DNA of 63,549 bases, counting the filler, from Sluysia triapertura (lineage: Eukaryota): NCBI GenBank assembly GCA_046118255.1. It is 5 parts of 5 records of this genome, joined end to end, with 100 filler letters (N's around TTAATTAATTAA, not from the genome) between each part and the next. Parts side by side here need not be neighbours in the genome. Positions count along the whole stretch, not along the records: positions 27,320 to 39,142 come from JBJNIA010167259.1; 4 more parts are not named here. The stretch is one strand, 5' to 3'. Below, in pieces: positions 10,246 to 61,829 of this stretch. The position numbers were made by a program, and so were the translations under genes. The notes below the pieces were generated by a model. That model saw only the letters and a program-made list of their open reading frames with translations, did not search any database and had not been told where the DNA came from. The first letter of the stretch is position 1, and each line of letters starts with the position of its first letter.

Positions 10246-13200
10246 TTCCATGGAACATATATGTTTGTAAATAAATTATAAGAAAAAAATTGATGCTTTA
10301 TAAATAATTAATTTTGTATTATTTTGTTAAATTTATTTATTTGTAAATAAAATTAAAAAATCAATATTTTATAAATGTAAAGGTAAAAGTAAAAATTATT
10401 GTAAAGGTAAAAAATAAATGGTAAAAATTATTCTGTCGATAAAAATTAATGTATTTTATTTAAAATACATTTTCATATAAAAATATATAATAATTAAATT
10501 ACATTGAAATTACTATTGAAATATTATAAAAAATAAAATTATTAAAAAACAAATAATAACAATATTATTATTATTTAAAACATTTAAAACTAAATATTAT
10601 TGTTTGTAATAATGATTGTTTACGGATAATCATAGCAACATAAAAACTATAAATACAGTGGGATTTTGTAAAATAGTCACAACAAAAAACTACAGCTCAT
10701 ATTTGTTATATTTGGAAGAAAGTTATACTTTATTGTTTTCTGATTACAACTTGAGAAAATTAGGAGAAAGCCATATTTTATTCATAAATCTAATCATTAG
10801 TTTTATATTAACTAATCATTAGTTTTAAAATAAATTTAATTAATTACATAAATTATACTTAATTTTAAATTACAATTTGGTAAATATTTGGTAAATAAAT
10901 AAACTTTGTTCATAAAATTGTGATAATTAAATATTAATTATAAAATTAATATTACTAAATATTGTTTGAACGAACCTTTAACATTTTATGTGATATTTTA
11001 TTACTAAATTTAATATAATTTTGTGTATTTGATACTGTACAAGTACATTCGATTATTAAAAATTTTATTTGTAATTTGTATGTAAATATTGATTTCACAT
11101 TTTCTAAAGTTATACAATTGAATTGATAGTTTTTTATCTAAAGTACGAATTAACATTTTATATCCAAAGTTTAATTGATTTAAATTTTATTATTGAATTT
11201 AATATTTTGTGTTTTTTAATAAATAATTTATAACATTCCTTGTGTCTTTTAATAAATAATAATCATTTAAATATTTTTATTCGGATAATTTTTGAATAAA
11301 ATAATAATTAAATTAACACTTTGTATCTTTTAAATAGTGATTATATCTATTCTTTAAATTATAATAAATTCTTCATTAAGAAAATTCAATTACAAAAAGT
11401 GTTTCGAACTAGGTATCACGTAGAATCAATAATTTATATACATATATACCTCCAGTGTTACTTTTTTTATTGACGCTGCAAATCTATGTGTTGGCACTTG
11501 AGTGAGTAAAACCAGTATCATAAAGAATTCACAATAAGAATAAGGAAACTAATCCAAAACAATTTTATCTTATATCCGTCTTTAATCTTAATCTTCACAT
11601 AAATAATTAATTTTGTAAAATTTTGTTTGTAAATAAAAAATTTAATTTGTTTATAAATAAATTGTAAAGAAAAAATATTTTATAAATAGTCAATTTTGAA
11701 AAAAAATTTAATTTAAAAGTTAGTAATTACTTTTTGATTCTATGTTGATATAAAAAGTTTTGACAATATTTTTTATATTTACTTTACGGTGATATGAAAA
11801 AACTTTAGTAATTTTTATATTTATTTTATGATCATAAAGGTTATAAAAATTGTTTCATGAAATAATTGTTTCATGTGCGTTGAAATTATTAAAGAGCACG
11901 CACAAAAGTTTTATAAATCTTTCAAAATATATATTTGTTTGGAAGAAGATTGTTGAAATTAATTTGGGACGTTGAATTATTGTGTAACTTTGGGATTGTG
12001 GAAATAGACCTTTTTATTGGAAGGAGATTTTGTCAGATTGGACATCTATTTAATTGGAAAGGAGATTCTTTGGAATAAATTCTTATTAAATTGATCACTT
12101 AAGTTAATAATTAATAAGTGTGCTCCAATAATTTTAGTAATAATATACAACGTAAAATCTTTATATATTCAAAACCAAGTATCAAACCTGGTTCAGTTTA
12201 AACTAAAATTAAAATCCAAATAAAGATCATCTCTTTATTTTTAATCTGTACATCATATAAATTTGTAATTTTTATTCTTTAACCTGTGTATGTTATATAT
12301 TATATTTATTTAATAAAATTTTGTTTTTCATGTTATATTTTTTCGAGAATCTTGAGGATTAAATTTAAAAAATTTTGAAAGTTAAGAAAGAAAATAAACT
12401 AGAAAGAAAATTTAAGTGAATAGAGATATATAACATTAAAGAATACACGTAAAAGATAATTTAAAAAGATATTTAACTGCAGCATAGTGACCCTCTAATA
12501 GAGAATTCATTTTAAGAAAAACTTTAATTTTTATATTCAAAAATATATTCTTTTTTAATCTGTAATTGCGTCCTCGTTCAGATGTTGGGATTAGTGAAGG
12601 GTAAAGGTAGATATAAAGGTTTAAGACTCAGGATAACATAATAAGGTGAACGTTATTGAGGAATTGAGATAGAGGATTCTGACGAATTGTAACGGTAAGA
12701 TAAATATATAAGATACTTGAATTAAGACAAAACAATGAGAAATACGAAGAAATAACCCATGACAAGGTTTTATTTGTTAAAATACTAAGGTACATTTGTT
12801 AATTAACTTAATTAAAATTTATTTAATTTAATAAATTATTAGAGATGTTTACTCATGATATAAAAATGTTAAATTTAGTGTATACTCTTGATTTTTATTA
12901 TTGGTTTTAATGATGAAGTGTTACGAAGCACGTCCACGCAGATAACGTAAAATTAGTTATTTTAATTAATTTTGTAATTTAAAATTAAAGATTAAATACG
13001 TTCAAATGTCTGAGAATTAATAAAGTATATATCAGATTAAAGCTTGTAAAGAAACAAGGGAGTACACGCTATTGAGATTGACGTGTGACATACCGTTAAC
13101 ATGTTACGTATGATATAAAATATTGTTATTAAAAGAAATTTTATATTAGATTATAAATATGGGTAAATTAGGATGATGCATTTTCATATTTGTTTGTATA

Positions 13201-16736: not shown

Positions 16737-16817
16737 GTTTATTTAATATGAAAATAAATAAATAAAAATAATATATGTTTTGTTTTATTGGTAATTATTT
16801 TTAATTTTGTTTTTAAG

Positions 16818-16927
16818 ATTCTGAAAATAAAATTGCTTTGGATACAGTTAAGGAGTTAGAATGGTGCTTAGAACGATTAGAAAGTATACAAACGTGCAGA
16901 TCAGTCAGTGATATGGCGTCCATCAAA
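16818..16927 (+). CDS. PDE4: cAMP-specific phosphodiesterase 4 (dunce) UCR2 exon (partial gene)
   Basis: 110-bp exon between TTTTAAG and GTAGGC encoding (D)SENKIALDTVKELEWCLERLESIQTCRSVSDMASIK. This matches the PDE4 UCR2 motif LAxETLEELDWCLDQLETLQTxxSVSEMASNK. Confidence 0.92.
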
Positions 16928-17581
16928 GTAGGCATTAACAAAATAAATAATTTTAGTTTTATATTTATAAACAATAGATAAAAATATATAAAGAAATAAA
17001 CGATAAAGACATTCGTATAACTACCGAAACATGAAAATAGTGAAGTTATCAAGAATATATACCAAGGTACAAGTTTCAGAGTTTCTCTGACAATTAATAT
17101 GTAAACTGCTTTTTGCCATTATGCAGATAAATTTTTTATAATTATATAATTATTATTATAATTATATAAAAAATTAAGCTTAAAACGTATGTTAAAATAA
17201 TTAAACATGTACAAAAAAGAAAAATTCCAATAAAGTCTAGTTACTAAGCATCACATTATCATATTTCAAAAAATTCAATTGTACTGTGACTATCAATATT
17301 GACATGTCCATGTCAATAATTATCAGTAATTTAATCGTCATAGTGATTTATAATAGTAATAATAATTATTATTTTTATTATATTTTTATTTTTTTATAAC
17401 ATCACCACATTATGTTAATAATAATTCATATCCGTTGTTATGCATGTAAAATATTTTGTGATGGAGATTATTCTATTTATATTGTATAATATAATATGGC
17501 GTAATATTATAACCGTCCTATTTAAAATGTGACTTCATTTATCTTCTCATGATACTTGGATTCAAGAAAAGCATGATTTTG

Positions 17582-18130
17582 TAATAATAATAAATTAATT
17601 TATATTACAATCATATATACTGCAAAATAAGTACTCAAAAGCACTTAAAATGAATCATTCACTATAATATTTCTGAAACAGAAAAGCTTTGCCTTTTTCT
17701 TAAATATTTCATAATATTCCAATAATTTGACATTCTTTGGTAGCTGGTTTTGTATTTTTGAAATATAAATGTTATATAACCTATCATCTAGCTTATTATC
17801 ACTGTGAATTATACGCAGATTATTATATCTCAATGAAATATTCATCTTGGTTTCCAAGTTTTTTATTATTTCTAAGAGATATTCAGGACTTCCGTAATGT
17901 AAGCACTTGTAAATTAATGTCATGATTTTGACTTCTATTCTTGATTTTATTGGCACCCAATAGAATTCCTTAAGATAAGGTAATTGAAAAGCAAATAACA
18001 AAAGTGCGAGTTTTAATAAATAACAATTAATTCAATGATCTCTTAGAAGAAAATTAAATCAATTATGAATAGTCTATCTGCGAAATGATTGTGTACTTTT
18101 ATTTTGAAAAACTTTATATTTTAAACCTTA
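17582..18130 (-). mobile_element. L2/CR1-group LINE 3' remnant (ORF2 C-terminus and tail)
   Basis: ORF 17645-18001 LKEFYWVPIKSRIEVKIMTLIYKCLHYGSPEYL...NQLP...FKKKAK fits the L2 ORF2 C-terminal pattern LHWLPVxxRIxFKIxxLxYKCLxGxAPxYL...WNxLP...FKxxLK. It has a (TTA)n tail and a second copy at 50417-50752. Confidence 0.85.
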
Positions 18131-27463: not shown

Positions 27464-29663
27464 CATATAAGTCATCTAATAAGACTTTGACATGGTCGTA
27501 AATTTTTAAGGTTATAAAACATAAGTTCACTCATACATTACTGAAGTATTTCTTTTTGAATAACCAAAAAGGTCTTTTTAGTATAGTGTTCCGTACTTTA
27601 GTAGTATAATTGAGATTAAAACAATGGATTTTTAAAGTTATAACGTGACTTATTTTATAAAATTAAATGAAATAAAAAGTACGAAATATGCTACACGCAA
27701 AAACTGAATAATTTAGCATAAAAGACGCAGAGTACGACAATAATTAAGTAAACGAGTTTGTATAACACAAAATAATAATAGCACAATATTAAGATTACAA
27801 TGGACATAAATGTCGAAAGTAATTAAATTCGATTGTGGTGGTCCAGCCCACAACTATGTACACATCACATAAATCACACCAATCAATTACACAAACCTCA
27901 TCACAAAAATTACATTATAACAAGTTTTGCCCATACCATTCAAAACACCACATCACCCATCGTTACGAAATTACAGATGCCTAATAAAATTTATTTTATT
28001 AGACACAAAGCTCGTTGTCATCCGGTCATCATTATTACGCAGTATTTTAATAATGGATTCAATCAAACAAATAGTTTCTACAGGACTTGGAATTTTATTT
28101 TCATCTAATTTACCAACGGTATTTTAAAAATGTGTATTTCGAAGCAATAGTTCTCCCTTTAGATATACTGAATCTAAATCTTTACGCCACCCATATTTTT
28201 AAAACATTTTGAGAATAAATTTAATAATTCAATACTATTATTGGATATTTAATAATTTCCTGTCTCAGTGCATCAATACTTACTACCTCATATATCAAAT
28301 CAAACTTTGTATTAACAATTCTTAAAATGTGCTTTGGATTTTAAATAGGAAACATTAAATAAATATTGCAATCAAGAGGTTAATTTAAAAAACAATATTA
28401 TTTATATTTTTGCATTTATCAAAATTTAAGTATTTATCTAAATTGTGTAACTGAATCTATTTTCTGTTTAATAAAATATGCTTTTGTGATATTTTATTTC
28501 ATTATTTTAATTCAAAAAAGCCACACACTTATGTTTCTTATGTTTCACAACCATTTCCAATTTGGCAATTCAATTTAACTTTTTTAAGAAAGTGATCAAA
28601 TATTTTAAATTAAAAACTAATTACAATGTTAATTTATCATAATTATACAATTATAACTATATATTCAATAAATAACACAAATATTTTATGTAAAAGCTAA
28701 GTAATCATAAAAAATTTGATTTACGATATTTTAAATGTCATTTTAATCATTTTATGGTGAAAAAAACACTAAAAGATTTAAATATATTTGTGAATATAAC
28801 TAGTGGCACATTTTGCTGACTTTTGTTGTATGCAATTAACTTAAAACTATTTGTTAGTTCTATTAATGTGAATATATGGACTGACAAATTATTCAGATAT
28901 TAATTTCATTATAAAAATTCTTGATAGATTGATTTATGTAAAAAATATGATAATAATATAATAGTGCACAGTCATGCAAAAAAAGATTTTACTTTATTTG
29001 GAGGTTTTTATTTTTCATATGCATAAAGATTATTGTTGGAATATAAGTAATTAAGTAAATAATTTGTTTGTTATGAATGGTTTTAATTTGTTGAATACGT
29101 TATTTTAAACTAAATAATGAAGTATACTGAGGTTTTAGTTCTTATAAAAAATTAGAAAAGTAAAGAAAAAGCAACTTAAAAACCATGAAAATAAACTACA
29201 AATTGGTTACTTTTATTTCAAATACTAAAATTACATCTAAGTACATATTTCAAAACCAACATTACTCGCAAGTAATTTGAAACATTAAAATTAAAAAATT
29301 AAAATTAATAAATGAATTGTTGTATTTTGTAATATCAAGTAAAATTTATTATTATAAGATACAATTATTTATTTAGATTTTAATCTGTGTGAATTCCTTA
29401 CGACATTGGCTAATACGTAAGTGACGTATATGATAATTATTTGGAGATTTTTTTATATCTTAAAGTGCCAAAAGACTAGTTATAGAACTATTGCTATAAT
29501 GTCAGAGATTCAGTTTCTGTCTTATTGCAATGAGAGGTTAAAATTATGTATTATACGTCGGATCCCATTTAAAACGGATCTCCGAAAATGAAATTTTAAT
29601 GTTAAACTATGAAAACAAAAAGGATTTTTGGGGCATTTTATAATGTCAAGTGTCTAAAAATAG

Positions 29664-29951
29664 ATTTTAAGATTTAAAAGTACAAATTAAGTATTGATTT
29701 AATAATTTTGTCTAAAAATAATTAATATTTAGTAAAATAATTTAGTAATATTTAATATATTATTGATTTTTCTAAAAAATAATTTAACAGACCTAATTAT
29801 TATTGGTATTATTATTGTTACTTTTATTATTATTATTTTATTATTGTTATTTTTATTATTAAAATCATTATCAATATTTTTATTTTTAAATTATTATCAA
29901 TATTATTTCTAAAATTCTTTTCTTTTAATAAATCAAATTTTATTCGGACAT
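29664..29951 (+). repeat. Direct repeat, copy 1 (copy 2 at 33898-34111)
   Basis: High identity by eye from TTTTAAGATTTAAAAGTACAAATTAA to TTTTATTCGGWCAT. Copy 1 has extra internal AT-rich sequence. Confidence 0.9.
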
Positions 29952-30620
29952 CATAATCATTCTTCAATTATCGATATTTCAAATGTACTAAAACCATTTA
30001 AAATATTACCAATAATTTTCGAGATGTCTTTGAAACTGGATATATAAGTTTAAATAAAGGAGACAAACTTAACATTAAAAACAATGAAAAAATAATTTAT
30101 AATGTAAGAACAGCTGGAAATGTATTGATGGATGGTGCTTGTGAAAGAGGTTCAATAGAATGCGAAGGGAAAATATATGACAACGTAGTAGCTCAAGAAA
30201 CATACGTATTAAGTTTAAGATCTTTTAATGAAAGTTTTGACTTAGAAAAAGGTACAATGATATCACGTCCATTTTGTAAAAGTACCAAACAAGTTGCGAT
30301 ACTGGTGAATCTATATTAATATACGAATTAGAAAAATTTCAATGCCAACTAATATTTTTGATACAATTTTAATTTAATTTCCGGATTTATGCACCAAAAT
30401 GAACTAGCTGTAGAAGATAATTTAGACATACCAGAAAGAAAAAGATTAAACGAAGTGGAAACCTCAACAATTTTAATGGCTACTAAAGAAGAAGATGGAT
30501 TGATATTAGTATCAAAAAAGTTGGTAATTAGATGCGTACAGGAAATCATAGAGACAAATTATCAAGGAATCTATTTATCTGAAAAAACAATTATGCAAGC
30601 AAGGAAAGGTATAGACAAAA
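29943..30620 (+). pseudogene. Chuvirus/herpes-gB-like fusion glycoprotein (env-like) remnant, frameshifted
   Basis: Joining frames at ~30010, ~30290 and ~30368 gives FGHHNHSSII...FRDVFETG...RTAGNVLMDGAC...GKIYDNVVAQ...LRSF...FCKSTxxSCDTG...C...IRCVQEIIETNYQGIYLSE. This is colinear with the recalled chuvirus-type G pattern CGMHSHxS...CxxxHxTG...TLAGxVxxDGxC...GxWDNVVVQ...C....C...CGxxxxxTEHPxLFIxE. Confidence 0.75.
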
Positions 30621-30773
30621 AATTTAAAACTATCTTTTCGAATTTTTACTTAGCTTTGTACATTAATTAGGGACAAATTTTATTAAATTTATATTGAAAT
30701 AATTCATAAAACTTTATTTACTAAGTATACGTTTACTTTCTTCTATCTTATTTTTCATTCATATTTTTAGATA

Positions 30774-31076
30774 ATGTATTACATCAAATGTTCAATATGT
30801 CAAAAATTAATTCACAAACATTATATAAAAACATTTTCATGAATGCATAAATTCCATTTCAAATGAATTATAAACCTTTTTCATTTTACACTAACTAAAC
30901 ACATGAATTGTCCATTGTGTAGAACAATGATAAAAGAAATACAGGTATTTTATAGGAGAAAATTCCGTCATTCATATGTACTCGAAAAAATTTCATCAAA
31001 TGTTAATATAGAAAATATTCAGGTACAAGAAATAGAAATTATTCAACCTACCTATCTTAAACAATTTAATAAATAG
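30774..31076 (+). pseudogene. RING-H2 finger protein with two in-frame TGA codons at Cys ligand positions
   Basis: MYYIKCSICQKLIHKHYIKTFS*MHKFHFK*IINLFHFTLTKHMNCPLCRTMIKEIQVF...* fits C-x2-C-x13-[TGA]-x-H-x2-H-x2-[TGA]-x14-C-x2-C. The TGA codons are at 30840 and 30864. Confidence 0.8.
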
Positions 31077-31594
31077 GAAATAATCATACCTAAGACAAAT
31101 TTCCCTCCTGGTCTGACGCGTTCTCAAAAACACCACTGTCGCAGAGACAATTGAGACGTTGGTATAAAAAGATAGGATTATATAAAAATAATTTAAGAAT
31201 TAAAAATAACCATTTCTTAAAAAATGTACTTAATATTTCATTTGCATTTTTTATTTTTGTGCTTCCTAATTAGTAATTAAATTAGTAATTAAATAAATAT
31301 AAAATCAAACTAGCGATTAAACTATCTAAATTTGTATCTGCTACTTTTTACTAAATATGTTCATTTATTTAGATGTCATCAACTTCCTTTCCACACGCAT
31401 ACATCACAAATAATATCCCTTCTTTATACAACGACATAGACCGCTTTGTGGCAAAAATGATACCCATTGTGTATTTTCAAAATCAAATCTTACCCCTAAT
31501 ATTTTGAAAAATGAATTGGATCACAATTGTATAACTCATTTATTTCAAATCTGTGAGAAAAGTAAAGCAAATAGAATAAAAACTTAACTTAAAC

Positions 31595-31640
31595 TGAGTT
31601 CACCAAGGTAATGGGCTTACCAGTTAGGGCCGGCCGTTGG
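31595..31640 (+). repeat. GC-rich dispersed motif B (putative retroposon 3' end)
   Basis: TGAGTTCACCAA.GTA.TG.GCTTACC.GTTAGGGCC is shared with 48134-48180. Related versions lie at 60749 (+) and 61757 (-). Confidence 0.75.
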
Positions 31641-32689
31641 ATTTATAAATCAAATAAGTCTCAAAAATATGCTAACAGAGCCTTAATTCTTAATCCTATC
31701 TGGAGGTAAACTTTATTAATGACTATTGTAGTGCTAAGATCCTCTAATAATTGTCAAATTGAGGTTTTCTGTTATTAAAAATATAAGTAGGTTTGAAAGT
31801 TATGCGTCATAATATTTAAAAGAATTTCTAGAAAACTTTGATTTTTAAAATATAAATGAAAATTGAAATTTATTTAGTAATTTTACGTAGATTCCATTAT
31901 ATGATGATTTTCCGTGGCTAGAAGTAAATTCTAGCGGTTGAAAACATGGAGCAAAACGAGAGATTTTATAGTTAAATCTATGTAATTTACAATAATAAAA
32001 GTCAAAAGATTTTCTTAATTTATTCTAAAAATTACGTTACTATAATTCACTGATAATAAAAATTATAGATTTTCGCAAATTATCTGTTTAAGTTAATTTC
32101 TTGCTAATAAATTTTAAGAAACAATAATTTAGGTACAGATCTAAGAAAAGATCCAATAATTATATACAAAAATTTAAGTTGATTTTACCTTTGATACTTT
32201 ACAGTATCTCCCTTAAAAATAATTAAACTAACGTAAAATGTAGATTCACAATGATTAAAGAATATTAAAAAAACTACTGGAGTCGTAGCCAGAATTTCGA
32301 AGTCTGTTGCAAAAAATTGTGCAAATGTTGTGAAAATGTTACTTATTTATATAGTTTTAATCTGACCTTCATCGGATTAAAACAAAATAATTAAAATAGT
32401 TATTAACATTTTACGCTAACTTGATTATAAATAATTAAAATAATTATAGTTAAATAATTATAGGCAGTTAAATAATTAAAATTAAATAATTAAAATTACT
32501 TACATTGGAACAAAAATTAGAACAAAAATTTCTAAATTAGAAGCAATAAAAATTTTAATAATGATCAATTAACGTATACAAAATTAATCAATAAATCAAT
32601 TAAATGTTTTATGCACAAAATTTCGCTGCACACAAAATTAATTTTTTAATGTTCAAATTCAACCCCCATTAATTATAAACACTTTACAG

Positions 32690-33240
32690 GGATACCCCAA
32701 ATACAATAGTCAGGTATTTCTTGCCGCGGCTAGGATTTCGCTTAAAATATTAATATTTGTAAATAAAGTCCCACTACATTCGCGTATTCAAGGATACTCT
32801 TCTTTAGTCATAACTAATTTAGCACAAAATTGTGAAGTACGCATAGAATCGGAAGGGCTGCCTACTTTTTTTAAATATTGAAAAGCCAGTAGATCTGCCT
32901 AAACATTCTGTATTGTATACTGATGATAAGGATAGTTCACCCATACACCACACTTATCTCTGTTGGAAAAAATTATACTAGTTTTTGTTGCAGTCAGTTG
33001 GCACTAGATTTTAAAGAAGGTTATCAACCAATAAGGGTTTGCCTAATGCCGTATCACAAACTCTTCCATTCTGATGAGTTGTTAAGGCTCCGTATAAGAA
33101 TTAGAAATTTTTTAGTAACAGAACACGGATTAAGTGAAAACGATCTTCTAATGCGAAGGTTATAGCTGATGTTCGTCAATATTGGCTTACGTCACTATGT
33201 GGCATTCTTCCCTGATATAATTATTAAGGGGAATCATCAA
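32690..33240 (+). pseudogene. Decayed coding-like segment, unknown product
   Basis: GC above the flanks, with broken frames including the 80-aa ORF 32923-33165. No family recognised. Confidence 0.3.
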
Positions 33241-33626
33241 CCTTACTTATACAAATTTAGTATCACATGAATCATTAAATCCTATATTAAGGGCACCGAA
33301 GGTTTTTAAATTATTATATCCCTTCCCACCGCGTGTTTCGTGTTTGCAGCACGCCAAAGACTTAATTTCATTATTTGATTTAATTCCTTTTTGCCACAAA
33401 TTGATAATTCAAAATTTATTCCTCCTTTAATTTTGCCTGCTTCTCTTGCTTCTTCTTCTTCCTCTTTTTCTCTATTCCATCTACCTCTTCTGACAAAAAC
33501 TCAATCTGCACAGAATTTCCTCACTTTGTTAAGCCTATACCTTTTTCACCTCCTCACAAACATCATAAAAGTGATACATTAAATAATAACACAAATACAA
33601 TCAAAGAAAATCCACACATTCACAAC

Positions 33627-33876
33627 ATGAAGACAGAACAAAAAACGACAAAATCTACCAAAACTGAGAGAAAATAATCAACAAAACCACCGGAGAAAGT
33701 TGCGATCACCAAGAAGCAGAAAATGGATTCGCCAAACGTTGATCTAGACGACACTGTCGATGACGATGTCGGTGTTTTGGGAAAAAAACTTAAATGATAA
33801 TGAATTTTTTGGTTGTGATGACGATATCCCAGTCATCACTTTATTAGATGATGATTTTACTTTTGATTTTGATTGA
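33627..33876 (+). pseudogene. Decayed small basic/acidic protein
   Basis: MKTEQKTTKSTKTERK*STKPPEKVAITKKQKMDSPNVDLDDTVDDDVGVLGK, then a frameshift in an A-run, then LNDNEFFGCDDDIPVITLLDDDFTFDFD*. Confidence 0.45.
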
Positions 33877-33897
33877 GATAGTAATAATACCAATTAT

Positions 33898-34111
33898 TTT
33901 TAAGATTTAAAAGTACAAATTAAATATTGATTTAATAATTTTATTGATTTTTCTAAAAATAATTTAATTGACCTAATTATTATTGGTATTATTATTATTT
34001 TAATGTTATTTTTATTATTAAAATCATTATCAATATTTATATTATTAAAATTATTATCAATATTATTTCTAAAATTCTTTTCTTTTAATAAATCAACTTT
34101 TATTCGGTCAT
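33898..34111 (+). repeat. Direct repeat, copy 2
   Basis: Matches 29664-29951. Confidence 0.9.
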
Positions 34112-37663: not shown

Positions 37664-38072
37664 TATAAAGGGATAGTATCTTCAAGAAATGAGATATTTG
37701 TCATATTATTCTTGTATTAGAAAAAAATGTGATATTTTTAATTATTTCATAATCGTCCTGTAATTTGATTTTCTCCAGTTATGGTGGTAAAGTTTTTGAA
37801 ATATAAATGGTGTTATATTATTATCATTATCATTATAAATTATATTATCATATTATCATTATCTTATTATAAGTTTTTATAAATCTATATTCATTCCACA
37901 AATATATCACAATTTTTGCAACGTAATCACTTATAAATTAGCATCATGATTTTAAATTCTACTTTTATTTTATTTTACAGTTTAATTCTTTATATGAATT
38001 TATTATATGCGTTTTTCATTGTAAGTAAAAAATTACTTTTGCAGTTTTTCCGTATATAATTGAATACAATAA

Positions 38073-41500: not shown

Positions 41501-42280
41501 TACTATGAAACAATAAGACAACTTAAGTTTAACATATCACTTTACTGTCGTTTTAAGTAACAACAACCGCTTTTACTTTTCTTTCTATTTTAAATATGTG
41601 AGAAAGTAAAGAACATAAAAGAAAAGATAGTGTAACTTGATCAAGACGAGATTTATGCGTTTTATTTTAATAATAGTAATATTAATCACAGTGTTGTTGT
41701 TATTATTACTATTATTATCATTATTTTTATTATTATTATTATCACCATTTTATTATTATATTTTCCATCTAAACTGACAAATCATACAGTAACTACCACT
41801 ATCAGTGGTTATTGAATTAAAATTCATATCAAATCAGTGTCACCACTCATAGTGGTTTACATATCAAATATCTTGCATATCTTGTAAATTTAGTATTGTG
41901 TTAGGTCTCTTTTATAACGTGTCTGGTTGGATGTTCATTTATTGCACACCCTATATTTCAATCTTGTTATCTAATAAAATTGATTTTAAAAATAGAAAAC
42001 TTAGAATCAATTGGACGACCAATGATATCTCCCTGAAGAGTCAAGCAGACAAAATTAGAGTTACAGCGAAGATTAATAAAAAGTATAATACCTAAAAGTA
42101 TACCAACGTTCAAGACAAACAAAAAAAGAGGATTATATCTTAAATACAAAAGCAGGACGATATCAGATATCATTAACATCTTCTGTTTCGTCATACAAAT
42201 AGTGTTAATAGTATTGTTAATTTTAATCTAACAAGAGCTTTTCATCTAAACGGACTCATTCTCAGTAATTAATCGATATA

Positions 42281-43111
42281 ATGATAATGATGATTATTTC
42301 AATAAAAGACCGTAATACGAGTAATACTGTACGTATTACTCGGAGACATTGCTCATCAAAGAATTTTACAGATTTGTTAAATGCGTATATAAAATATATT
42401 CATAATCCAATTGACGATCCGTATTTGTCTGATACATTACAAGACTTGATTAATTCTATTAATTTAACAAATTGTGATGTAAACAATATCGGTTTCCTAC
42501 TCATTATTTCTCTAACGACGTCGCAACTAGAAAGAGTTGAACAAAGAATAAATAGTATCAATAAAGAACAACCACCATGTGATTATCTTTCCTTTCTTCA
42601 ATCAATCTATGACATTTATATGAATTTATCATTAGAAAATATGATAGATGTAGAATCGGTCTATAAGCCACATTTTCAAGTTACATGCTTCATCAAAGTT
42701 GATAATGATGTTTTTCCAATAAATCAGCGATGCATCGATATAATTAATGATAAGTTACTGAAAACGCAAAATATTCAACTTATGATTAGTAAATTACAAG
42801 TTCATCTGGTAGCAATTAGGAATATTCGATCAAAACGGTCGTTTCCCTGCAATATTTATAATGAATCATTATTCTTTGTAAGATGTTCCGAACATGATTT
42901 TAACCATAGCGAAGTAGTTAACGTGTATGACGATTATCATGAAAGAAACCTAAAACAACGTGAAATAGAACAATATCTTCGTTTTATTAACTCGCAACAG
43001 AACAAATCATTGATGAATGGACCAATACATGTAGAACATTTAGAGCTAGTTGTCATAACCTTTTATAAGATCGAGTCAATCAGTGTGAATTATAAATTTA
43101 TACATATGTGA
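42281..43111 (+). CDS. Intronless 276-aa hypothetical protein
   Basis: Longest ORF in the window. An open ATG-to-TGA frame of this length is very unlikely by chance at this AT content. No motif recognised. Confidence 0.7.
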   Translation: MIMMIISIKDRNTSNTVRITRRHCSSKNFTDLLNAYIKYIHNPIDDPYLSDTLQDLINSINLTNCDVNNIGFLLIISLTTSQLERVEQRINSINKEQPPCDYLSFLQSIYDIYMNLSLENMIDVESVYKPHFQVTCFIKVDNDVFPINQRCIDIINDKLLKTQNIQLMISKLQVHLVAIRNIRSKRSFPCNIYNESLFFVRCSEHDFNHSEVVNVYDDYHERNLKQREIEQYLRFINSQQNKSLMNGPIHVEHLELVVITFYKIESISVNYKFIHM

Positions 43112-48133: not shown

Positions 48134-48180
48134 GTGAGTTCACCAACGTACTGAGCTTACCGGTTAGGGCCAGTCAATGG
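48134..48180 (+). repeat. GC-rich dispersed motif B
   Basis: Near-copy of 31595-31640. Confidence 0.75.
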
Positions 48181-48299
48181 ATTTTCTATCAAAAATTTAA
48201 GGTAAATGGAGGTGATAATTAAATGTAATACTTTGGGAAGAGCTTTTAATATTTTTAATTTCTTATTAATACGAAAAACTGAAATTCTATTTTAATTGT

Positions 48300-49051: not shown

Positions 49052-49513
49052 TTAGAAATGATCTATAATTATGAGTTGATAGTATGAGTTTTGTATTGCA
49101 AAATTGTATTTTAAAAAGAATTTAAGTAATTGTTCAAGTTTGACTCTCCTTGAGGACTTAATTTCATTAGAAACCTCCATTTTACAACCTAAATTTGCTA
49201 TGCAATGAATGTAATTAAATGATGTTTTAATTTCTTTAAGTGCTGTTTCTAAAACAAATTCTAGCTCAATAGAATAATTCTTACGTACATAGTATATTAC
49301 ATTTAACCTTACGAAATCTCTTTCTGATTTTAAAGTTTGCTTAATTTTAATTATCATATAGTTTCTACAAGATTTTCTTAATTTATCAAGAGAATGTAAG
49401 GACTTATAATGTTTATTAAGGTTTAGCTCAACCTTATCTGTCATGTTTAACATTATCTTTATAAACTTAGTACCATTATGTTCAAATGTTATTAATAAAA
49501 AAGTATAATCCAA
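49052..49513 (-). CDS. Intronless ~150-aa hypothetical protein
   Basis: Long open frame in very AT-rich DNA. Starts at TTG, first ATG is 20 codons in. No motif recognised. Confidence 0.5.
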   Translation of the reverse strand: MDYTFLLITFEHNGTKFIKIMLNMTDKVELNLNKHYKSLHSLDKLRKSCRNYMIIKIKQTLKSERDFVRLNVIYYVRKNYSIELEFVLETALKEIKTSFNYIHCIANLGCKMEVSNEIKSSRRVKLEQLLKFFLKYNFAIQNSYYQLIIIDHF

Positions 49514-49581
49514 ATTTATTATATAATTAAAACTATTAATTACACTAAAATGTAAAAATAATTTGTCTATTGTAATCGTCC

Positions 49582-50177
49582 ATGAGACTCCGACGCGATA
49601 TTTTTAAAGACCCTGTCGTTGCATGTCATCGATCCAAAATAATTGACTGACGACTATTTCCAGAACCTTTGTGATTTGATGGTGAGTGAACATGTGACGA
49701 ATTTTGCGGACACAGGAGATGGATTTGATCAACTTCACCAATGTACCTAGGTCAATTACAACAAATTTAAATTTCATTCAATATGTTATAAGACAGCGCT
49801 ATGCAATTAACGGAAATAGGTGAGTGTGTCAATTTTGACAAGAATTGTATTTATTCACACGGTTTGTCCGATCTACAACCACCTATTTTAATATACCAAA
49901 TCTTAATAATCATTATGAATGCATCAAAAATTTAGTATGAAGTCTTATGATTTCACCGCACATGGAGAATCCAACCATCAAGTATTCTACATCGATCGAC
50001 GATCCCCAGATTGACAATGCTTCCAGATCGCTAATTCAATTCAAGTTTAAGGTAAAAAAATCTCTTTACTTTGATGTTTTTTATGACCATGATTTTACAC
50101 ATTATACTTTATTTAGAAAAATATGTAAGGGTGATCCTGTGGCATGTCCAAACAAGATTAAGGAATTTTATTTGTAA
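49582..50177 (+). pseudogene. Decayed intronless ORF, divergent from 49052-49513
   Basis: Raised GC and broken frames from MRLRRDIFKDPVVAC to ORF 49947-50177, which ends ...KGDPVACPNKIKEFYL. Confidence 0.4.
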
Positions 50178-50416
50178 TTAAAGACTTAATTATAATCAAA
50201 ATTTGTTTAATATATGTTTTATTGTTTTACTTATATTTCTTTAGTAAGATTTATTAAGATAATTAATCTATATCTAATAGTCAAATATATAGTCAACTTA
50301 ACTGCATCAAATAAAGTTTATATGAATAACAAAAAGCCATATTTACAATTGACAAACAGTGGATATTTTATAACAAAAAATTGAAAACGTATGCTTAGTC
50401 GAGATTGCCCAAGCGG

Positions 50417-50752
50417 TAATAATAATATATTAATTTATATTGCGCTCACAACTACTACAAAGTAAGTACTCAAAGGCGCTTAAGGTAAATCATTCACCAT
50501 AATATTTCTGAAATAGAAAGAACTTTGGCTTTTTCTTAAATATTTCATAATATTCCAGTAATTGACATTCTTTGGTAACTGGTTGTATATTTTGAGACAT
50601 AAACGGCATACAACCTATCACCTGAATAGATTATCATGCCTCAATGAGATATTCATCTTGGTTTCCAATTTTTGTTTTATTTCTAAGATATTCAGGACTT
50701 CTGTAATGTAAGCACTTGTAAATATTTGTCATAATTTTGAATTCTATTCTTG
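50417..50752 (-). mobile_element. L2-type LINE 3' end
   Basis: Homologous to 17582-17942. The minus strand ends AAGCGCCTTTGAG...GAGCGCAATATAAAT...(TTA)n, the L2-like 3' stem-loop and tail. Confidence 0.85.
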
Positions 50753-51023
50753 TAGTTAAAAAGGTAAATTTGAAAGTCACTTTGTTTGATAAAATTTGGA
50801 AGGGCTGGTTCAGTTTGGATTATCATTTAATCAACTCAGGTCTAACTTATAGAAAGTTTTGGGCCCATCTAATAATTAAAGGCGAAATTTTTTCTGTTGA
50901 TTTTTTAATTAGTAAGTGCCATTATTTGTTAAATACAAATTTAAATCTAGTATATTTGATGTTTTACAATTTTAAGATAAATCATTTCCATTTTATAGTA
51001 TGTTGATTTACGAAATTATGTAG

Positions 51024-51304
51024 GACTTATTGATATCAATATACTGGCGACTGGAATTTCAGGTGGTATTCGGAAGAAACGGGAAGAGTTGGCAGCCGTC
51101 ATTTGGGATATGGTAACTGGGATGAATACCAAACGCGGATTTGCAGACTCAGGTTCTAAGACATTACAGTATCAACATGTTTTGGATGAGGTCCGTAAAA
51201 CTACTGATAGAATGATATCGCGCGAATTATTCGAAGATGCGTTAAACGTATTAAAAATGGAAGGTAAGGTGGAATGGGCCGGAAAAATTATCCGCTTTAA
51301 ATAA
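51024..51304 (+). CDS. MCM4: DNA replication licensing factor MCM4, terminal exon (winged-helix C-terminus; partial gene)
   Basis: A TAG acceptor precedes (G)LIDINILATGISGGIRKKREELAAVI...TLQYQHVLDEVR...MISRELFEDALNVLKMEGKVEWAGKIIRFK*. This matches the MCM4 C-terminus [24 protein letters not shown]...LKYQQLFEDIR...ITKDMFEEALRAL. Confidence 0.9.
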
Positions 51305-51381: not shown

Positions 51382-51941
51382 ATCACGTTTAGTATTATTT
51401 GAAATTTATTAAACTATCAGTTACGAGATGGACGAATGAATAATTCGTGATTTTACAAATCAAAAAACAGTAATATTTAACTTTATCGAACCATAAAAAG
51501 ATAAAATTTGCCTAAATAAGTCAACACTACAATATTTAACTTTCACATATTAAACAAAGCTGTTATGATTCGAAAAATAAATAAAAATGGAGTAATAACT
51601 ACTAATCGGTGACGTTTAATAATAATAATTCGACTATAAAAGTGTCGTTAAATAAAATATTATTCATGGGTTTTGAAATTAGCAGTTAAATATTAAATTA
51701 TAATACCAAGGAAGTTTTAATAAAGGACATATTTAACTTCTTAAATCCATTCAATAAAATTCACGAACTGAATTGTATGTGTATTATAATACGTATTGTA
51801 ATTATTAATAAATTTAATCAAGTTGACCGAAATGAGTAATTAAATAAATCTACACAATAAAATATTAAATTAATAATGTAACCTTACAATAGATAAAAAT
51901 AATAATGGACAGAATTTTTATTTGTGTTAGTTAATTATATA

Positions 51942-52060
51942 TGTTGGGATTGCCCAACTTTGGATTGGGAGACGAGTAGAGGGCATGTAGAGTTACAAAC
52001 GAAGGAAGAATTGATGAGAAGTAACAGATGAAGTATTATAAACATTGTTGAAATAAGAAT
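51942..52060 (+). mobile_element. Repeat family A left end, truncated by the gap
   Basis: TGTTGGGATTGCCCAACTTTGGATT..., nearly identical to 63406 onward. Confidence 0.85.
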
Positions 52061-52849
52061 NNNNNNNNNNNNNNNNNNNNNNNNNNNNNNNNNNNNNNNN
52101 NNNNTTAATTAATTAANNNNNNNNNNNNNNNNNNNNNNNNNNNNNNNNNNNNNNNNNNNNCTATAATTACAATGTATAAAATCCAATATTAATTCGTATC
52201 ATCCAGCCAAAATTAATAATGAGTCAATTAAGTATAATATTCCAAAAAAATAACTAAAACTATATATTAATTTATAATTGAAACTAAACACGATTGCTGT
52301 TATTTAATGAACATTTATTTAATATCATTACGAGCTTTTAATTTAGAAATATTCTCATTTCAATGTTATTTACATTGAGTTTTTTAATTGAGAACAATAT
52401 TATAAAAATACATTTTATACAATGTAGTTTTGTTAAGTATTAATTAACGTTATATGAATTTATATGAATATTAACTTATCCAGGGAAATTTTTCTTACGA
52501 ATTGACTTTAAATGGCATTGAATTTTTTAACTCCGAAAAAATAGTTCAATACACACCGAGCTCGAAAGCAAGGTATGATAAGACGTTCATGGTAACTAGC
52601 ATGTTAATAACGCATTATACTTAATAAGTGTTACACTGTGTTTTCGAAAATATCACTTTTAATTTATTTAGTTTCAACAAAATATGTGAGAATTCAGATT
52701 ATATGTTCTTCATCACACACCGTCTTCAATGTATTAATATTAATCATCAAAAAATCATTTTAATATGATTTTTGAAAGTCTAATTGAAACAGAAATTATT
52801 TTGATAATATATATTAATTTCTAATAAAAATACAAATTATTTAAAGATG

Positions 52850-53563
52850 CAGTTGTGGCCAAATTATTAGACTAGAGACAATTTTTGTGATAAAATTCAA
52901 CATTTTTTCAAGGATGCTGTGAAACTATTAATCAAAAATGTATAAATACATGCCTTTTACCGTCATTGGTCAAAGAAAATGTAAAATGTTGGAAAAGAGC
53001 TACTTTCTCCAAAAAAATTCTGGTGAAAGTAAAATAATAGATAAAAATACTGAGATCCAAAACATACAGAAATTTTATTCATGTAGAATAATAATAACAC
53101 AATTTACTACAAATCAAATATGTACAAAATTTGTTATCCAATAATTTCCTGATCCTTAACCCTTTCAGCCCCGAATTTCTTTTCCTTAAGTTATATGGTG
53201 ATTTATTGTCTTTATAGATGATGATTTAGGAAAATTGTATGAAAATATATAGGTCAAAGTTCAAACATAAATATCCATTGAAAAGTTACGAAAAAGTTTA
53301 TAAAAAGTTAGTTGTGTAAGAGAAAAAATCGCCATTAACGCCATATGGCGGTCCCGGGGCTGAAATGGTTAAAAACATGCCACGGATGCCATACTTTTAT
53401 GAGGGTTTCAATAAGTTGGGTATGGTGGTTGGTTAATGGGCAGAAACTCTCCTTTTGACATTCTCCCACAAACTTTTTATGGGAGTCATGTCTGGAGAGT
53501 TTCCAGGCCAGACATCGAGAAACATCTTTTTCATGTTTTAGTCTAATAATTTGGCCACCATTG
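52850..53563 (-). mobile_element. Internally deleted Tc1-family transposon
   Basis: 25-bp TIRs at 52850-52874 and 53539-53563 (CAGTTGTGGCCAAATTATTAGACTA, 23/25 match), with TA on the right flank. The minus strand at ~53523-53385 encodes LDVWPGNSPDMTPIKSLWENVKRRV, the Tc1 WPxxSPDLNPIENLW motif. Confidence 0.9.
53160..53368. mobile_element. piggyBac-type MITE nested in the Tc1 remnant
   Basis: TTAA on both sides (53156-53159, 53369-53372) and 14-bp TIRs CCCTTTCAGCCCCG / CGGGGCTGAAATGG (13/14 match). Confidence 0.9.
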
Positions 53564-53994
53564 TAACTTATAACAATAATGACAGAACAAGTTCAAGCAT
53601 ATTGTACAAAAAATCGTTATTTTCATACCAAGATTCTTGGTTAATAATCTTAATCGATATAATAACTAAAGCTATTCTTTCAATCAATCTGACGCAAGTT
53701 AGTATTATTAGATCTTTTCGCTAAAACTTTAAAATCATCGTTTACTTTTACGTTTTTATGTTTCAAGTAATAATTAATCACTGAGTAAGTACTCGCTGTT
53801 AAAATTGAATTTAAAACTAGTCGTAAAATTTTTATTGCTTTACATTGATGTAGCTGTTTAGATAACGAAATTAAACATTCAGTATTGATATGATTATTAA
53901 AAACTCAAATATGATAATTCAATATTCCACATATGATTCGTAGCATGACAAGACTTAAAAATTAATAGTACTATTAGATGATATCGAAATAGTT

Positions 53995-55044
53995 TTAATT
54001 GATTGTGATATTGTGAATTGATTGGATGATGAGAGAGTATAAAATATAGATTTCAACCGTGACAATAATGATGATAGATCTGAACATCCATGCTTAGGTT
54101 AAGGTCTTTAATTTTATTTATTTATTTATTATTAAAATAAAATAAACAACTAGTTTTATTTTAAAAATATTAAATTTGTTAATATTAAAGTTTTTATTTT
54201 TTAAATTGATATTATTATGTAAAAGAATCATGAAAATAAAGACATTTATAATAATTATAACAGCTAAAGAATACTTTGACATTCCAAAGAACTATATAAG
54301 TTGTTGAGATCTTTTGGAGGTTGAAATGTACCCAAAAACCTTTGAAGGTATTAGAACACCTTTGAGATTTTTAATTTTGAGACCATCTAAGACTCTATTA
54401 ACCTTTATGTATTCTGGAAACATTGATAAGCATAAAAGATCTTCGAGTAATATTATAAAGTGTATAAAATCTTTAAAATGTTTGAAATTAGTGGGAGACC
54501 TCATTCGCTATTTTATTTTAAAGTATTAAATTTATTATTTTTATAAAGGAGTTTTATCATTATTTAGAGGGAGACTCCCTTCGTTATTTTATTCTAAAAT
54601 ATTAAATTTATTTTTGATTTTAAGTAATTGTATTATCACTTTACAATTGTTCTTTTAAAATATAATAGTTATCCAACATTAATATTTTAAACTTCCTGTA
54701 TATTGATATTCTTAGTCTGTTGCGTTACTCATGGTTGTTTTATTTTAAAGAATTTGTAATATCCTGGTTATTATTGTAAACGCTATTTTTATTTTTGTCA
54801 TTTTAATAATGACTCATATTAATAATAATAATTTTTTTTCGATTTTTATTTAATAGTACATTATTGTTTTAGTTTCGATTTGATTTTCAAGCACCTTAAA
54901 TTTGGTATAATAGTTATCGATATTATAAAAGAAGATTACGGCAAAATTATACTTGATACACTGACTCTTGAAATTATTAAGGTTTAAGCTGATCAAGTTA
55001 ATAATATTGAGTTGTAATAACAAACAAATTTTAAAGACGCAACA
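53995..55044 (+). mobile_element. Repeat family A, rearranged copy ending AAAGACGCAACA
   Basis: Segments match the reverse complement of 55981-56140, 56935-57190 and 55116-55442. Confidence 0.8.
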
Positions 55045-55115
55045 ATAATGCAAATATTATCAAATAAACGATAATAAAAATAATGCTGGAAAACAATTTT
55101 CGCTATAAGTATTAT

Positions 55116-57308
55116 TGTTGCGTCTTTCAAATTTATTATTTATTATAGCTCAATCTGATCTCGTTTAGCTTAAAATAGTCTTAATAATTTCAGTAGTAAG
55201 TATATCAAATATAATTTTGTCGTAATCTTCTTTTATAATATTAATAATAATTATACCAAATTTAAGTTCTTGAAAATCAAATCAAAACTAAGACAATGAT
55301 TATTAAACAAAAAATCGTAATATAATTTATTACCAATAAGAATCTTTACTAAATACTGAGAACAACTAAACGACAAAAAATAACAAAATCAAACAACCAC
55401 AAAACAACCAGGAGTGACGCCACAGACATTAACAATATCAAAGTCTATAAAATTAATAGTAATTATGTTATTTAAATATTTTGTGGTCAACGTAACAAAG
55501 AATGATGACCATTATAATGAAATTCCTTGATAATAATACCTTTCTATTAAAAACTTATCAATAATGTCTGAAGGTAAAATACTCAGTTCTCTGATATAAT
55601 AAATTGAGTAAAGTGTTTCTCTTCAATTCACCTTAAAAATAACTGAAAATCAAATATGATTTAAATATAATCCTCAACAAAAATTACGTAAACTGTTTCT
55701 CAATTAATAAATAAAAATGAAATATAGTCTTAACAAAAATTGCGTAAGGAGTCTCTTATTAATCCTCCTTAAAACAGCTGAAAAGCAAATACAATTTAAA
55801 TATAATATTCAACAAAAACTACGTGAAATTTTTCTCACTTAATTATCTTAAAAATAGTTTTTTAACAAAAATTGCAAAAGGAGTTTCTTATCAACTCACC
55901 TTACAAGTAGACTAAAAAATTAACTAAAAGTGACACAATATTAAAATTATTCAAATTGAAATGAGATCAATCACTTATATTATTTTAATAAAATAATAAA
56001 TAAATAAATAAAAATTAAAAACTTTACCCTATACATGGATTTTCATATATATCATCATCATTGTCATTATTGTAAAAATTTTGAAATCTTTATTTTATAC
56101 TCTCTCATCATCCAATCAATTCACAATCTCACAACCAAACACTCTGTCACACAAATAATCCTAACCTTTTTGAGAATCAGACCGCCAATAACAACTTTGA
56201 TAACTACATGTTACGGTCTGTCACACTTAATTAAGTAGAAAACATAGAAATCTTATTTATTATCAACCATCATTTTCTTTTACTCTACTCAATTTATTTT
56301 TACTTAAATTACATCTCACATTAAAATAACAATAAACAATATTAACATACATAAAAAATAATGAATTTAGAATTTCACTTTTTAGAATTTAATTAGTTTT
56401 CGATTTTTCACACCCAATTTTCTAATGAAAAATGTTTTCAGGTTCTTATTCTCAAACGAACCATTCTACAAACATTTCAATCTCACTTCTCTTTCATAGA
56501 TTCATTATATTTGCATCACTCTAAGTATAAAAATTTGACATTCAATAATTAAAAAGTAATTAAAATTTGACTTTGCTCAATATTAAGACTTTCTTTGCAC
56601 GAACTCGGTCCAACCATACCTTCATTGAAAGGTCTTTTCAAAACAAATACATACGCAGTTTCAAATTCAACATAGCATTCCGCATTCAAAAGTTATTCAC
56701 GAAAAACATACTTTTTCTTAATTAAGTCAATTAAGATTTTTAATTAATTAATATATTTTCAGACTTAATCTTATTCTACGTTTAAAGGTTTTATTGATAT
56801 TTTAAAATTATTTAGTAGTTTATAAGGCATTCAGGAGGCTCTAGATGTTTTCACCTTCACCTCTCTGATTCATTTGCCTTGTTCTTCATGTTAATTATTA
56901 CCATATTATTTTAAATAACGATTTTATTTCTCAATCATTTTAAAGATTTTATACACTTTATAATATTACTCGAAGATATTTGATGATTATCAATGTTTTC
57001 AGAATACTTAAAGGTTAATAGAGTCTTAGATGATCTCAAAATTAACAAGTTGAAAGGTAATCTAATGACATCAAAGGTTTTCCAAGTCACTTTCAAGCTT
57101 TCACAAGGTCTCAACACCTTATATAGGTTTTGGGAATGTCAAGGTATTCTTTATCTGTTAAAATTATTATAAGTGTTTTTTTATCATGGTTCGAATTTCA
57201 ACAATGTTTATAATGTTCAATCCATCAATTTGTATAAGTTCTTCATTTATTTTATGATTTTATATGCTTCTTACTCATCTTCTAATCTAGAGTTTGGCAA
57301 TCTCAACA
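55116..57308 (-). mobile_element. Repeat family A, longest copy (~2.2 kb)
   Basis: Both termini are present (TGTTGAGATTGCC... and ...AAAGACGCAACA on the minus strand). Internal ~135-bp tandem units at 55600-55910. No long ORF. Confidence 0.8.
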
Positions 57309-57319
57309 ATATTATGATG

Positions 57320-57660
57320 AACTTTAATGAGGTTCAATGACCTATATAAGTGTTTGAAACCTCACGGAAGCTTGAGATGGACTTGAAAAACCTTTCAAAG
57401 CATTAAATTACCTTTAAAATTGTACACTTACTCTTGGAACATCGATAAGCATTTGAGATTCTCTAGTAACCTTATAAAGTATTTAAAATTTTTATTATCG
57501 GTATTAAAGATAAATATTCGTAAAATTAATATAAGGAAGTAGAAAATGAATCAGAGAAAATAACTAGAGCCTCATGAAAGCCTTATAAACTACTAAATAA
57601 CTTTAGGTGCTTAATAAAAACCTTTAAGCTAAAATAAAATTAAGTCTAAAAATAGATTAA
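57320..57660 (+). mobile_element. Repeat family A internal fragment
   Basis: Matches 2520-2822 (CTAGAG.C.C.TGAA, AATAA.ATTAAGTCTAAAA). Confidence 0.65.
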
Positions 57661-57662
57661 TT

Positions 57663-58450
57663 TGTTGCGTCTTTCAAATTATTATTACTGTAATTCAATA
57701 TTAATTCAATTAGTTTAAAAAGAATGTCACTTATCCAAGTACTCCCAAAATAAAGTATAAGTTTTCAAAAATTCTCTTATTTAATATCAATAATTATTCA
57801 TCCCAAAATTAAGCTCTTGGAAATCAAATCAAAAATAACACAATAATTTACTATTAAACAAAAATCAAAATATAATTTATTATTAATATAAATATCTACT
57901 AAATAATATTCAAACCGGCTAAAAAGGTCAAGATTAATAATAATATTTATAATAATATTAAGGACACTACATTATAACTAAAAAATAGAAGTGACGCAAG
58001 AGACTAAAAATATCAATATCTAGAAAGTGAAGAATAATGATAGTGCCCAAGTATTTTTAGATAACTTAACCAAGCGTAACTACGAATAAATATTACAAAA
58101 AAAATTAATATAAAAAATTAATATTTGAAAAATAAACAAAACTAATTTTAAAGTCCCAAAAAGATAAATTGCAAAGGGGGTCTCCCACCAAAAGATTTTA
58201 AAATCCCTTAAAAAATAGATAAAATAATAATGTTGATAATAATCAGAATATTAAAACGATATTAAAATAATAAATTAGAATAATAAAATAATAAAATATC
58301 CTTACCAAGATCATGGATCTTCTTAATTCTGCAAATCTTCTTGGGTTCTGTGATTGTATGATTGTGTTGTAAAAATTTCGAAATTTTTATTCTATACTCT
58401 CTCATCATCCAACAATCCCAAGTCTCAATCAAACACTCTCGCACAAATCG
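57663..58450 (-). mobile_element. Repeat family A right-end fragment
   Basis: Begins TGTTGCGTCTTTCAAATT and is colinear with 55116-56150. Confidence 0.75.
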
Positions 58451-59414
58451 TGGTGGCCAACCTATTACTTTGACAATTTTATTTTACCATTACATAACAA
58501 AATCACTCTTCACTAAAATCATTTTTCATATGTCAAAACATTTTATTCATTATCTTATAACATTTGTATCACAATTACATTTTAAACCTTCGAACACACA
58601 TCTCAAAAATTCAATCTATAATATTTTACGTTTACAATCCTCAACATTCAATCCTTAATAACACTGAAAACATTAAATCAACAATTTTAAACCATTTTTA
58701 GACATTTCAACCAAATTGTTACTTTTTAACATTTCTAGTTACGCACTATTTCATATAGACATTCTCCTATCAATTCTTCATACACATTGCGTAGTTCACT
58801 AATCACCGAATAAGGTCTTCTTCAGAAGAATTTGAAGAGAATTTTAATCTTTATCATTTTTCAAGGAATTTAAGTATGTTTAGAAACAGAAGAATTAAAA
58901 GAAAGATCGTGTTTTTAAAATTTTAAAAGGAATTTGTCTTTATTTTTTTGTATTATTATTATTTTAACATTAACTACATCATAATTATCATATAACTATT
59001 ATTATTTTGGTAACCATTTTATTGTCATTTTATTCACACAATCATTGTTCTTGTTCTTATTCTTACTATTACATTTTGTTATCTACTACCCCATGCAGAT
59101 TATATGTTTATATTTTTTAGGAGTTTAAGAACATCAACAATGAGACATACGCAGAAAATAATTAGTCCAAATCAAAATTTAATTTTAAATGTTATAGAAT
59201 CTAAAAAATTAAATCGCTTATGTGTCCTATTTTATTTTTATTTCATGAATAAAAAAATTAATGATAATTTAATCAAATGTCATAATAATTTTGTAATTTT
59301 TGAATCTTTTACAATGTTAAATATAAATGATTTAATTAAGTTAATAAAGTTACATAATAAATATCAATTAAATCAAAATTTTAAAATTATAACTATACTT
59401 CAACAATATTTATC

Positions 59415-59740
59415 ACAACACAAATCATCCAAACCTCTTTGAGAATCAGATCTACAATAACAACTTTGACAATTACATGGTACGATCTGTCAAACTTCAT
59501 TAGGTACCAAACATAGAAATTTGATTTATTATCAACCATCATTTCCTTTTACTCTACTCAATTTATTTTTTACTTAAATTACTTCTCATATTAAAATAAC
59601 AATCAACAATATTTTTAACATACATAAAAAATAATGAATTTAATTTCACTTTTTAGGATTTAATTAATTTTCGATTTTCCTCTTTCACAGCAATGATCTC
59701 ATATTCAATTCATTACATTTGATCATTTTAAGTATTGTCA
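59415..59740 (-). mobile_element. Repeat family A internal fragment
   Basis: Close match to 56148-56410 and 56490-56530. Confidence 0.8.
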
Positions 59741-60700: not shown

Positions 60701-60806
60701 TATATTGTGAGAATTTTGTTTTTTTATATTTATATTAATATATCTTACGTGAGTCCTCTAGGACACTGGGCTTACGCACTCAAGGGCCAGCACATAGATG
60801 TCAGCA
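60701..60806 (+). repeat. Motif B variant; left arm of an inverted pair
   Basis: GTGAGTCCTCTAGGACACTGGGCTTACGCACTCAAGGGCCAGCACATAGATG followed by AAATAAATAAA. Inverted homolog at 61702-61809. Confidence 0.8.
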
Positions 60807-61809: not shown

Positions 61810-61829
61810 AAAAAATGCAACATTTCATA

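Follow-up and report, generated by a model that had tools for sequence, protein, structure and literature searches.

A decayed gB-like envelope fragment, very probably from a Burro-like Ty3/gypsy retrotransposon, in an AT-rich animal genome

Introduction

The Burro elements of planarians are gypsy-like, occur in thousands of copies and carry an env gene in frame between a BCL2-like domain and the protease. This env matches mononegavirus fusion glycoproteins, and decaying Burro fragments with stops and frameshifts have been described in Dugesia japonica (PMC6431247, available sections). SMEDWI-2, a PIWI protein of planarians, silences BURRO1 (PMC8532177, excerpt). According to the accessible part of a broader survey, gB-type env is found in Ty3/gypsy elements across animals, with the order GAG-ENV-POL in flatworms, nematodes and bryozoans (PMC13524379). 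Errantiviruses 1-6 of S. mediterranea belong here, with an HSV/gB-type env in configuration C1a (GAG-ENV-POL) and 1-215 intact copies, and the same text gives env-conferred infectivity as known for Drosophila elements only. A related gene, the glycoprotein (G) of chuviruses, is known from insertions in arthropods and nematodes (PMC10084718, in part).

Here we analyse a stretch of DNA of 63,549 nucleotides (the window), which is AT-rich with a GC content of 22.8%. A first-pass annotation of its sequence had read part of it as the remains of a gB-like fusogen of class III, akin to chuvirus G and derived from an endogenous virus or an env-bearing retroelement. The fusogen relic, its relation to chuvirus G and its retroelement origin are upheld by a match to Pfam PF24664 and by fold matches of a homologue. 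We conclude that the relic is very probably a dead, doubly truncated env fragment of a Burro-like Ty3/gypsy gag-env-pol LTR retrotransposon (an 'ancient errantivirus').

Results

Three-frame translation of 29901-30700 gave four stop-free stretches in frames 3, 2, 1 and 2, hence three frame changes, and the path between them has no in-frame stop (Table 1). The first-pass annotation had described about 225 colinear codons with ordered motifs across three frameshifts, and this description holds: all of the motifs were found in that region, in order and on the + strand. The pieces are colinear on the natural homologue P0009 (residues 27-36, 55-141, 144-166 and 208-256) and on P0010 (residues 304-365, 368-389 and 397-479, within an env that spans 160-807). 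Comparisons by tblastn and by profile both returned the locus. Residues 253-447 of P0003, from its env, matched 30023-30619 (E=5e-15) when compared with the window by tblastn, and a profile search of the window matched 30008-30625 (E=3e-30). The ORF at 30002-30316 matched Pfam PF24664 (Monjiviricetes_fusion) with 29.8 bits, above the cut-off of 27 (E=2e-7), while three of the four pieces submitted gave no such match. Piece 1 reached E=5e-5 in pairwise comparison with P0009 and fell below significance in the six-frame profile search of the window.

Table 1. Features of the env relic and the adjoining repeat, in positions of the window.
Feature	Positions	Strand	Frame	Evidence
Env relic, whole: part of a PF24664-type gB-like fusion glycoprotein ectodomain	29946-30620	+		~225 codons; tblastn and profile
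Piece 1, His/Ser-rich motif, weak alone	29946-29996	+	3	8/10 identical to P0009 27-36
Piece 2, fusion-domain part, within ORF ~30002-30319	30023-30292	+	2	Pfam PF24664, E=2e-7
Piece 3	30292-30360	+	1	13/23 identical to P0003 343-365
Piece 4, within ORF 30362-30670	30362-30619	+	2	P0010 397-479, E=9e-12
AT-rich local repeat copy; abuts and truncates the relic's 5' end	29665-29951	+		blastn to 33898-34111, E=3e-48
Twin of the upstream repeat; no env sequence after it	33898-34111	+		Repeat comparison

We also searched the window with a profile of three homologues, none of them a match from the window's own search. Relic pieces ranked first, second and third among 1182 window ORFs (47.9, 44.4 and 20.9 bits), and the next-best ORF scored 7.2 bits, with a maximum of 8.9 bits across 20 locally shuffled windows. 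The env relic at this locus is genuine, beyond chance. It comprises roughly one third of an env, from the fusion-domain part of the ectodomain, and lacks the signal peptide, the central helix, the C-terminal domains and the membrane anchor.

Both ends of the relic are broken. The upstream repeat and its twin agree in 49 of 51 letters up to 29951 and in 15 of 40 beyond it. At its end this different local repeat covers the first two codons of GHHNHSS, indicating that the env gene was cut at ~29951. Eight contigs of sequencing run X1 extend upstream of 29945 with different sequence. At the 3' end, homology stops at ~30620, and the summed depth of contigs falls at 30614, from 40,247 to 348. Neither the missing parts of env nor any gag, pol or LTR turned up in the window, and no LTR-like pair flanks it within 15 kb. 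No MATH or BIR domain was seen at this copy. None of 14 non-G viral ORFs, with L and N represented in part, matched the window at E 0.1, and Rfam gave no match there. In two additional sets of 25 and 146 window ORFs, mostly confined to those of 40 or more residues and 27% or more GC, only MCM4_WHD and PDE4_UCR reached the Pfam cut-off.

A phmmer search against 1.84 billion representatives returned six matches, of which four were repetitive-protein artefacts and two, P0003 and P0006, were PF24664 proteins; no further PF24664 protein reached E 0.001 in this search. In P0003, env is followed by retroviral aspartic proteases and preceded by a weak Bcl-2 match (E=0.007, below cut-off). Relatives of P0003 (P0009-P0012) were found, which led to contig L001, a single frame of 3426 residues with env, proteases, RVT_1, RT_RNaseH, Integrase_H2C2 and rve. 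The L001 integrase is of the Ty3/gypsy type, and L001 matches the relic locus with E=1.5e-10. L001 and P0003 have a pre-env domain in common (E=1e-8), for which L001 gave no Bcl-2 match in Pfam. The env domains of these relatives are part of Ty3/gypsy polyproteins, and the domain order, Bcl-2-like, env, protease(s), RT, RNase H and integrase, is that published for the Burro elements of planarians. The relic is 24-33% identical to its best relatives. Other searches added little: a word-indexed protein search with a 105-residue ORF found nothing among 114 candidates, which is weak evidence, the ESM Atlas held only unnamed clusters below 0.9, and scans of viral contigs with the element env P0003, A5 and A7 as queries confirmed no relative. 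A match to designed PPR repeats in a PDB sequence search was rejected as an artefact of summed 4-bit repeats.

Some features of the relatives were observed in passing. The Burro-like polyprotein of L001 (2-10282 of that contig) has several protease-like domains and extra hydrophobic segments. It is followed by a separate ORF at 10617-12107 with an exonuclease domain (RNase_T, E=1.4e-5), which is absent from the Burro domain list in the available text of PMC6431247. Troyka, considered as an identity for P0003 on account of the several proteases, was rejected, as no Troyka has an envelope according to the accessible part of PMC12440569.

We compared the locus with env proteins of five elements and G proteins of eight RNA viruses. 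Element env were picked for their resemblance to the query or to P0003, and virus G on the basis of a single short motif, which makes both sets biased as well as small. That motif picked 13 viral loci, of which eight encode glycoproteins and five non-glycoproteins were left out. Three of the eight were confirmed as PF24664 and the others were taken as virus G by likeness; two adjoin a capping methyltransferase domain, one above the cut-off and one just under it. Against the locus, the five element env scored 49-74 bits, whereas the eight virus G scored at most 32.7 bits and three of these had no match at all. For pieces 2, 3 and 4, a profile of three element env gave 45.5, 20.3 and 40.8 bits, versus 22.8, -2.4 and 4.7 bits with a profile of the eight virus G (the piece 4 values refer to its last 55 residues). 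Piece 2 has 22-28 identities in 88-90 columns with the five element env and 12-19 in 75-90 with the virus G. The segment after the second cysteine pair region is longer in virus G and shorter in both the locus and the five element env. Two unrooted trees, one per piece and built without the short or fragmented P0011, P0012 and L002, placed both pieces inside the element clade and outside the eight virus G with UFBoot 100; the trees resolve this clade membership and not the position within the element clade.

Published sequences point in the same direction. We examined 229 env and fusogen sequences in the supplement of PMC13524379, as far as it was available, by motif search and by eye only; motifs can be missed there because gapped rows split them. 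TGES (3 occurrences), EEDG (1), GIYLS (1) and ETNY (2) were found only in S. mediterranea elements among these sequences, and PFC had two occurrences in S. mediterranea elements and one in a tunicate. HSS and TNY favour no group, since 12 of the 13 HSS occurrences are in insect elements and TNY is widespread. By eye, the relic has 24/89, 13/23 and 17/41 identities (about 27%, 57% and 41%) with Smed_errantivirus_3. Also by eye, an insect-type motif pattern, which is missing at the locus, is seen in the supplement's three BEL env from mosquitoes.

The predicted fold was assessed mainly through the homologue P0010. Its AlphaFold2 model has a mean pLDDT of 47.6 and is confident only at ~223-382, which overlaps pieces 2 and 3, and at the membrane helix. 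A Foldseek search of the PDB with this model gave Thogoto GP, baculovirus GP64 and herpes gB as top matches at E ~5e-7, with low TM-scores of 0.11-0.15. The best Foldseek matches in BFVD were tick and insect chu-like G; BFVD cannot return an element env because it holds viral proteins only. VIA-align ranked the HSV and HCMV gB first, with middling Z scores of 6.7 and 6.3 over 205 and 137 aligned residues (rmsd 6.8 and 4.1). The window piece alone has a pLDDT of 52 and no fold match under E 0.001; chu-like G came first at E=0.27. A structural comparison with gB, as the first-pass annotation had suggested, is favourable for the homologue and not for the window piece, which folds poorly and has no significant match. 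These models support a gB-like fold for the family through P0010, not from the fragment itself.

Run X1 was the only run with this stretch, and no RNA run was listed for it. X1 is not independent, and the assembly may have been made from it. In X1, 3857 contigs align to 29200-32200 at 80% likeness, 159 of them at least 99% alike and 3207 less than 95%. The summed depth across the relic is 23,000-171,000 versus 15-19 for single contigs, a value that is not a copy count. The relic belongs to a highly repeated sequence family in this run. Of the variant sites listed, the 40 with the best support have almost all of their summed depth on letters other than that of this copy, and transitions account for 279 of 441 changed places. 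Close to the first two frame changes, the related contigs are also longer or shorter than this copy. None of the contigs listed spans this copy, whose frame changes are known from the assembled sequence. The variants, the transitions and the length differences suggest that the relic is an old, decayed private copy.

Discussion

Combining the searches, the trees and the context of the relatives, we identify the locus as, with high probability, env debris of a Burro-like Ty3/gypsy element. Because this copy has no linked gag, pol or LTR, its membership in the element rests on the affinity of its env. Compared with Burro/GYPSM1, the giant gypsy LTR retrotransposons of dugesiid planarians, the relic's context-bearing relatives have the same in-frame succession of Bcl-2-like domain, env and protease, whereas the relic itself keeps only ~225 env codons and is truncated on either side of the region in which that succession would be visible; the likeness is to Burro as described in the available text, not by direct alignment. 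The S. mediterranea errantiviruses have the TGES, EEDG, GIYLS and ETNY motifs in common with the relic. Unlike them, this copy is broken, and its divergence is at the low end of their within-group spread (27.4-63.7% in the accessible part of PMC13524379), so that it represents a different family. The first-pass annotation had considered an undescribed lineage. The lineage is in print, as Burro (PMC6431247) and the S. mediterranea errantiviruses (PMC13524379), going by the available portions of both; the family within it may still be unnamed.

Among the other explanations, an env of BEL/Pao type (Anakin or Tas), or a gypsy-type env recaptured and amplified by another transposon, survives best, and we regard it as improbable. 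The very high repeat depth fits amplification by any retroelement, and capture of this gene family by BEL/Pao has been published (PMC7642597 and PMC13524379, each in part). Anakin and the mosquito BEL-Pao elements also resemble the relic's relatives in that an LTR retrotransposon carries and amplifies a gB-like env. They belong, however, to another retrotransposon superfamily than these relatives, and their motifs are of the insect type, which speaks against the BEL/Pao origin mentioned in the first-pass annotation, in a comparison by eye that covered mosquito BEL. In addition, both relatives with context have retroviral-type proteases, and the pol of L001 is Ty3/gypsy.

A copy of a chuvirus (Jingchuvirales) glycoprotein mRNA, taken directly from an RNA virus, is less probable still and has already been largely refuted. 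PF24664 is named for viruses of the Jingchuvirales type, chu-like G is the best BFVD match of P0010 and, at E=0.27 only, the first of the window piece, and G-only insertions are common in arthropods (PMC10084718, in part). The Pfam family and the class III fold are indeed common to the Jingchuvirales G (as far as the same source is accessible) and the relic's family. These G nevertheless form a separate clade with other segment lengths, and the longer segment of virus G is missing from both the locus and the five element env. With scores of at most 32.7 bits, three virus G without a match, trees that exclude the locus from the virus G and neither L nor N nearby (0 of 14 non-G viral ORFs matching the window), the chuvirus insertion considered in the first-pass annotation is not supported. 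A fusogen or antiviral env domesticated by the host, with frame changes that would be assembly errors or spliced over, could draw on the stop-free path between frame changes and on the lack of a listed contig that spans the copy. It is the least probable of all, given that both ends are missing, one is fused to a repeat, the variant sites with their 279 of 441 transitions look like those of a private copy in decay, and related contigs are longer or shorter than this copy close to the first two frame changes.

The Burro-like origin suggests a simple history. A copy of the very abundant element would have landed in a non-coding part of an AT-rich animal genome. Deletions would have left only ~675 bases, with one end fused to another repeat, and three frame changes and many substitutions would have followed by neutral decay. 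We class the locus as a relic derived from the Burro-like family and not as an element itself. Since the start, the signal peptide and the anchor are all absent, we infer that the relic does nothing as a protein now. The parent gene would have encoded a gB-like membrane-fusion protein within the polyprotein, cut out after a signal peptide. Class III fusogens are membrane-fusion proteins, and by analogy with them the parent protein would have let particles enter other cells.

The single locus matters little, as such debris is expected in Burro-rich genomes and has been in print since 2019. It is of use as a marker of a very abundant enveloped gypsy family with a divergent env in this genome. 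It is also a warning that 'chuvirus glycoprotein' matches in animal genomes can be retrotransposon env rather than records of infection by RNA viruses. A bolder proposal, that a distinct and extremely abundant gB-env gag-env-pol family resides in a host outside Dugesiidae and possibly outside flatworms, is in our view doubtful. If true, the restriction to certain hosts reported for this env type would be widened or broken, and either long vertical descent or transfer of an enveloped retrotransposon across phyla would be indicated.

That the host is an animal is shown by two exons in the window, a spliced one of PDE4 and a divergent one of MCM4. The env type and the AT richness suggest that it is likely a triclad flatworm, an argument that is partly circular. 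The MCM4 piece scored about equally (36.5-33.5 bits) with PDB entries that we take to be from vertebrates and fly, which weakly disfavours an insect host. The PDE4 exon is at 16817-16930 (+), with a PDE4_UCR match (E=1.8e-9) and AG and GT splice signals; a short-motif search of the window found no PDE4 catalytic-domain motifs, and the env relic may be located within a PDE4 intron or outside it. The MCM4 exon at 50999-51304 (+) encodes the C-terminal winged helix; it had no match in the word-indexed protein search, and its matches in the Atlas gave taxa at domain level only. A search of the rest of the window for three short MCM ATPase motifs found none, possibly owing to long introns or split motifs, or because the exon is an orphan piece.

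Several other features of the window were noted. The longest open frames, at 42269-43111 (+) and 49052-49603 (-), encode 280 and 183 residues and have no Pfam match under E 0.05. The region 32640-33900, which adjoins the twin repeat, is GC-richer (34-35%) and looks like decayed coding sequence, with no Pfam match at cut-off. A second repeat of very high depth is located at 31523-31724 (summed depth 22,000-27,000), and 31595-31654 within it matches 48135-48193. Dense direct and inverted repeats of 60-150 bases with 75-95% identity occupy 51900-63549 and 17581-17951 / 37735-37974 / 50416-50752, and are probably old transposon fragments.
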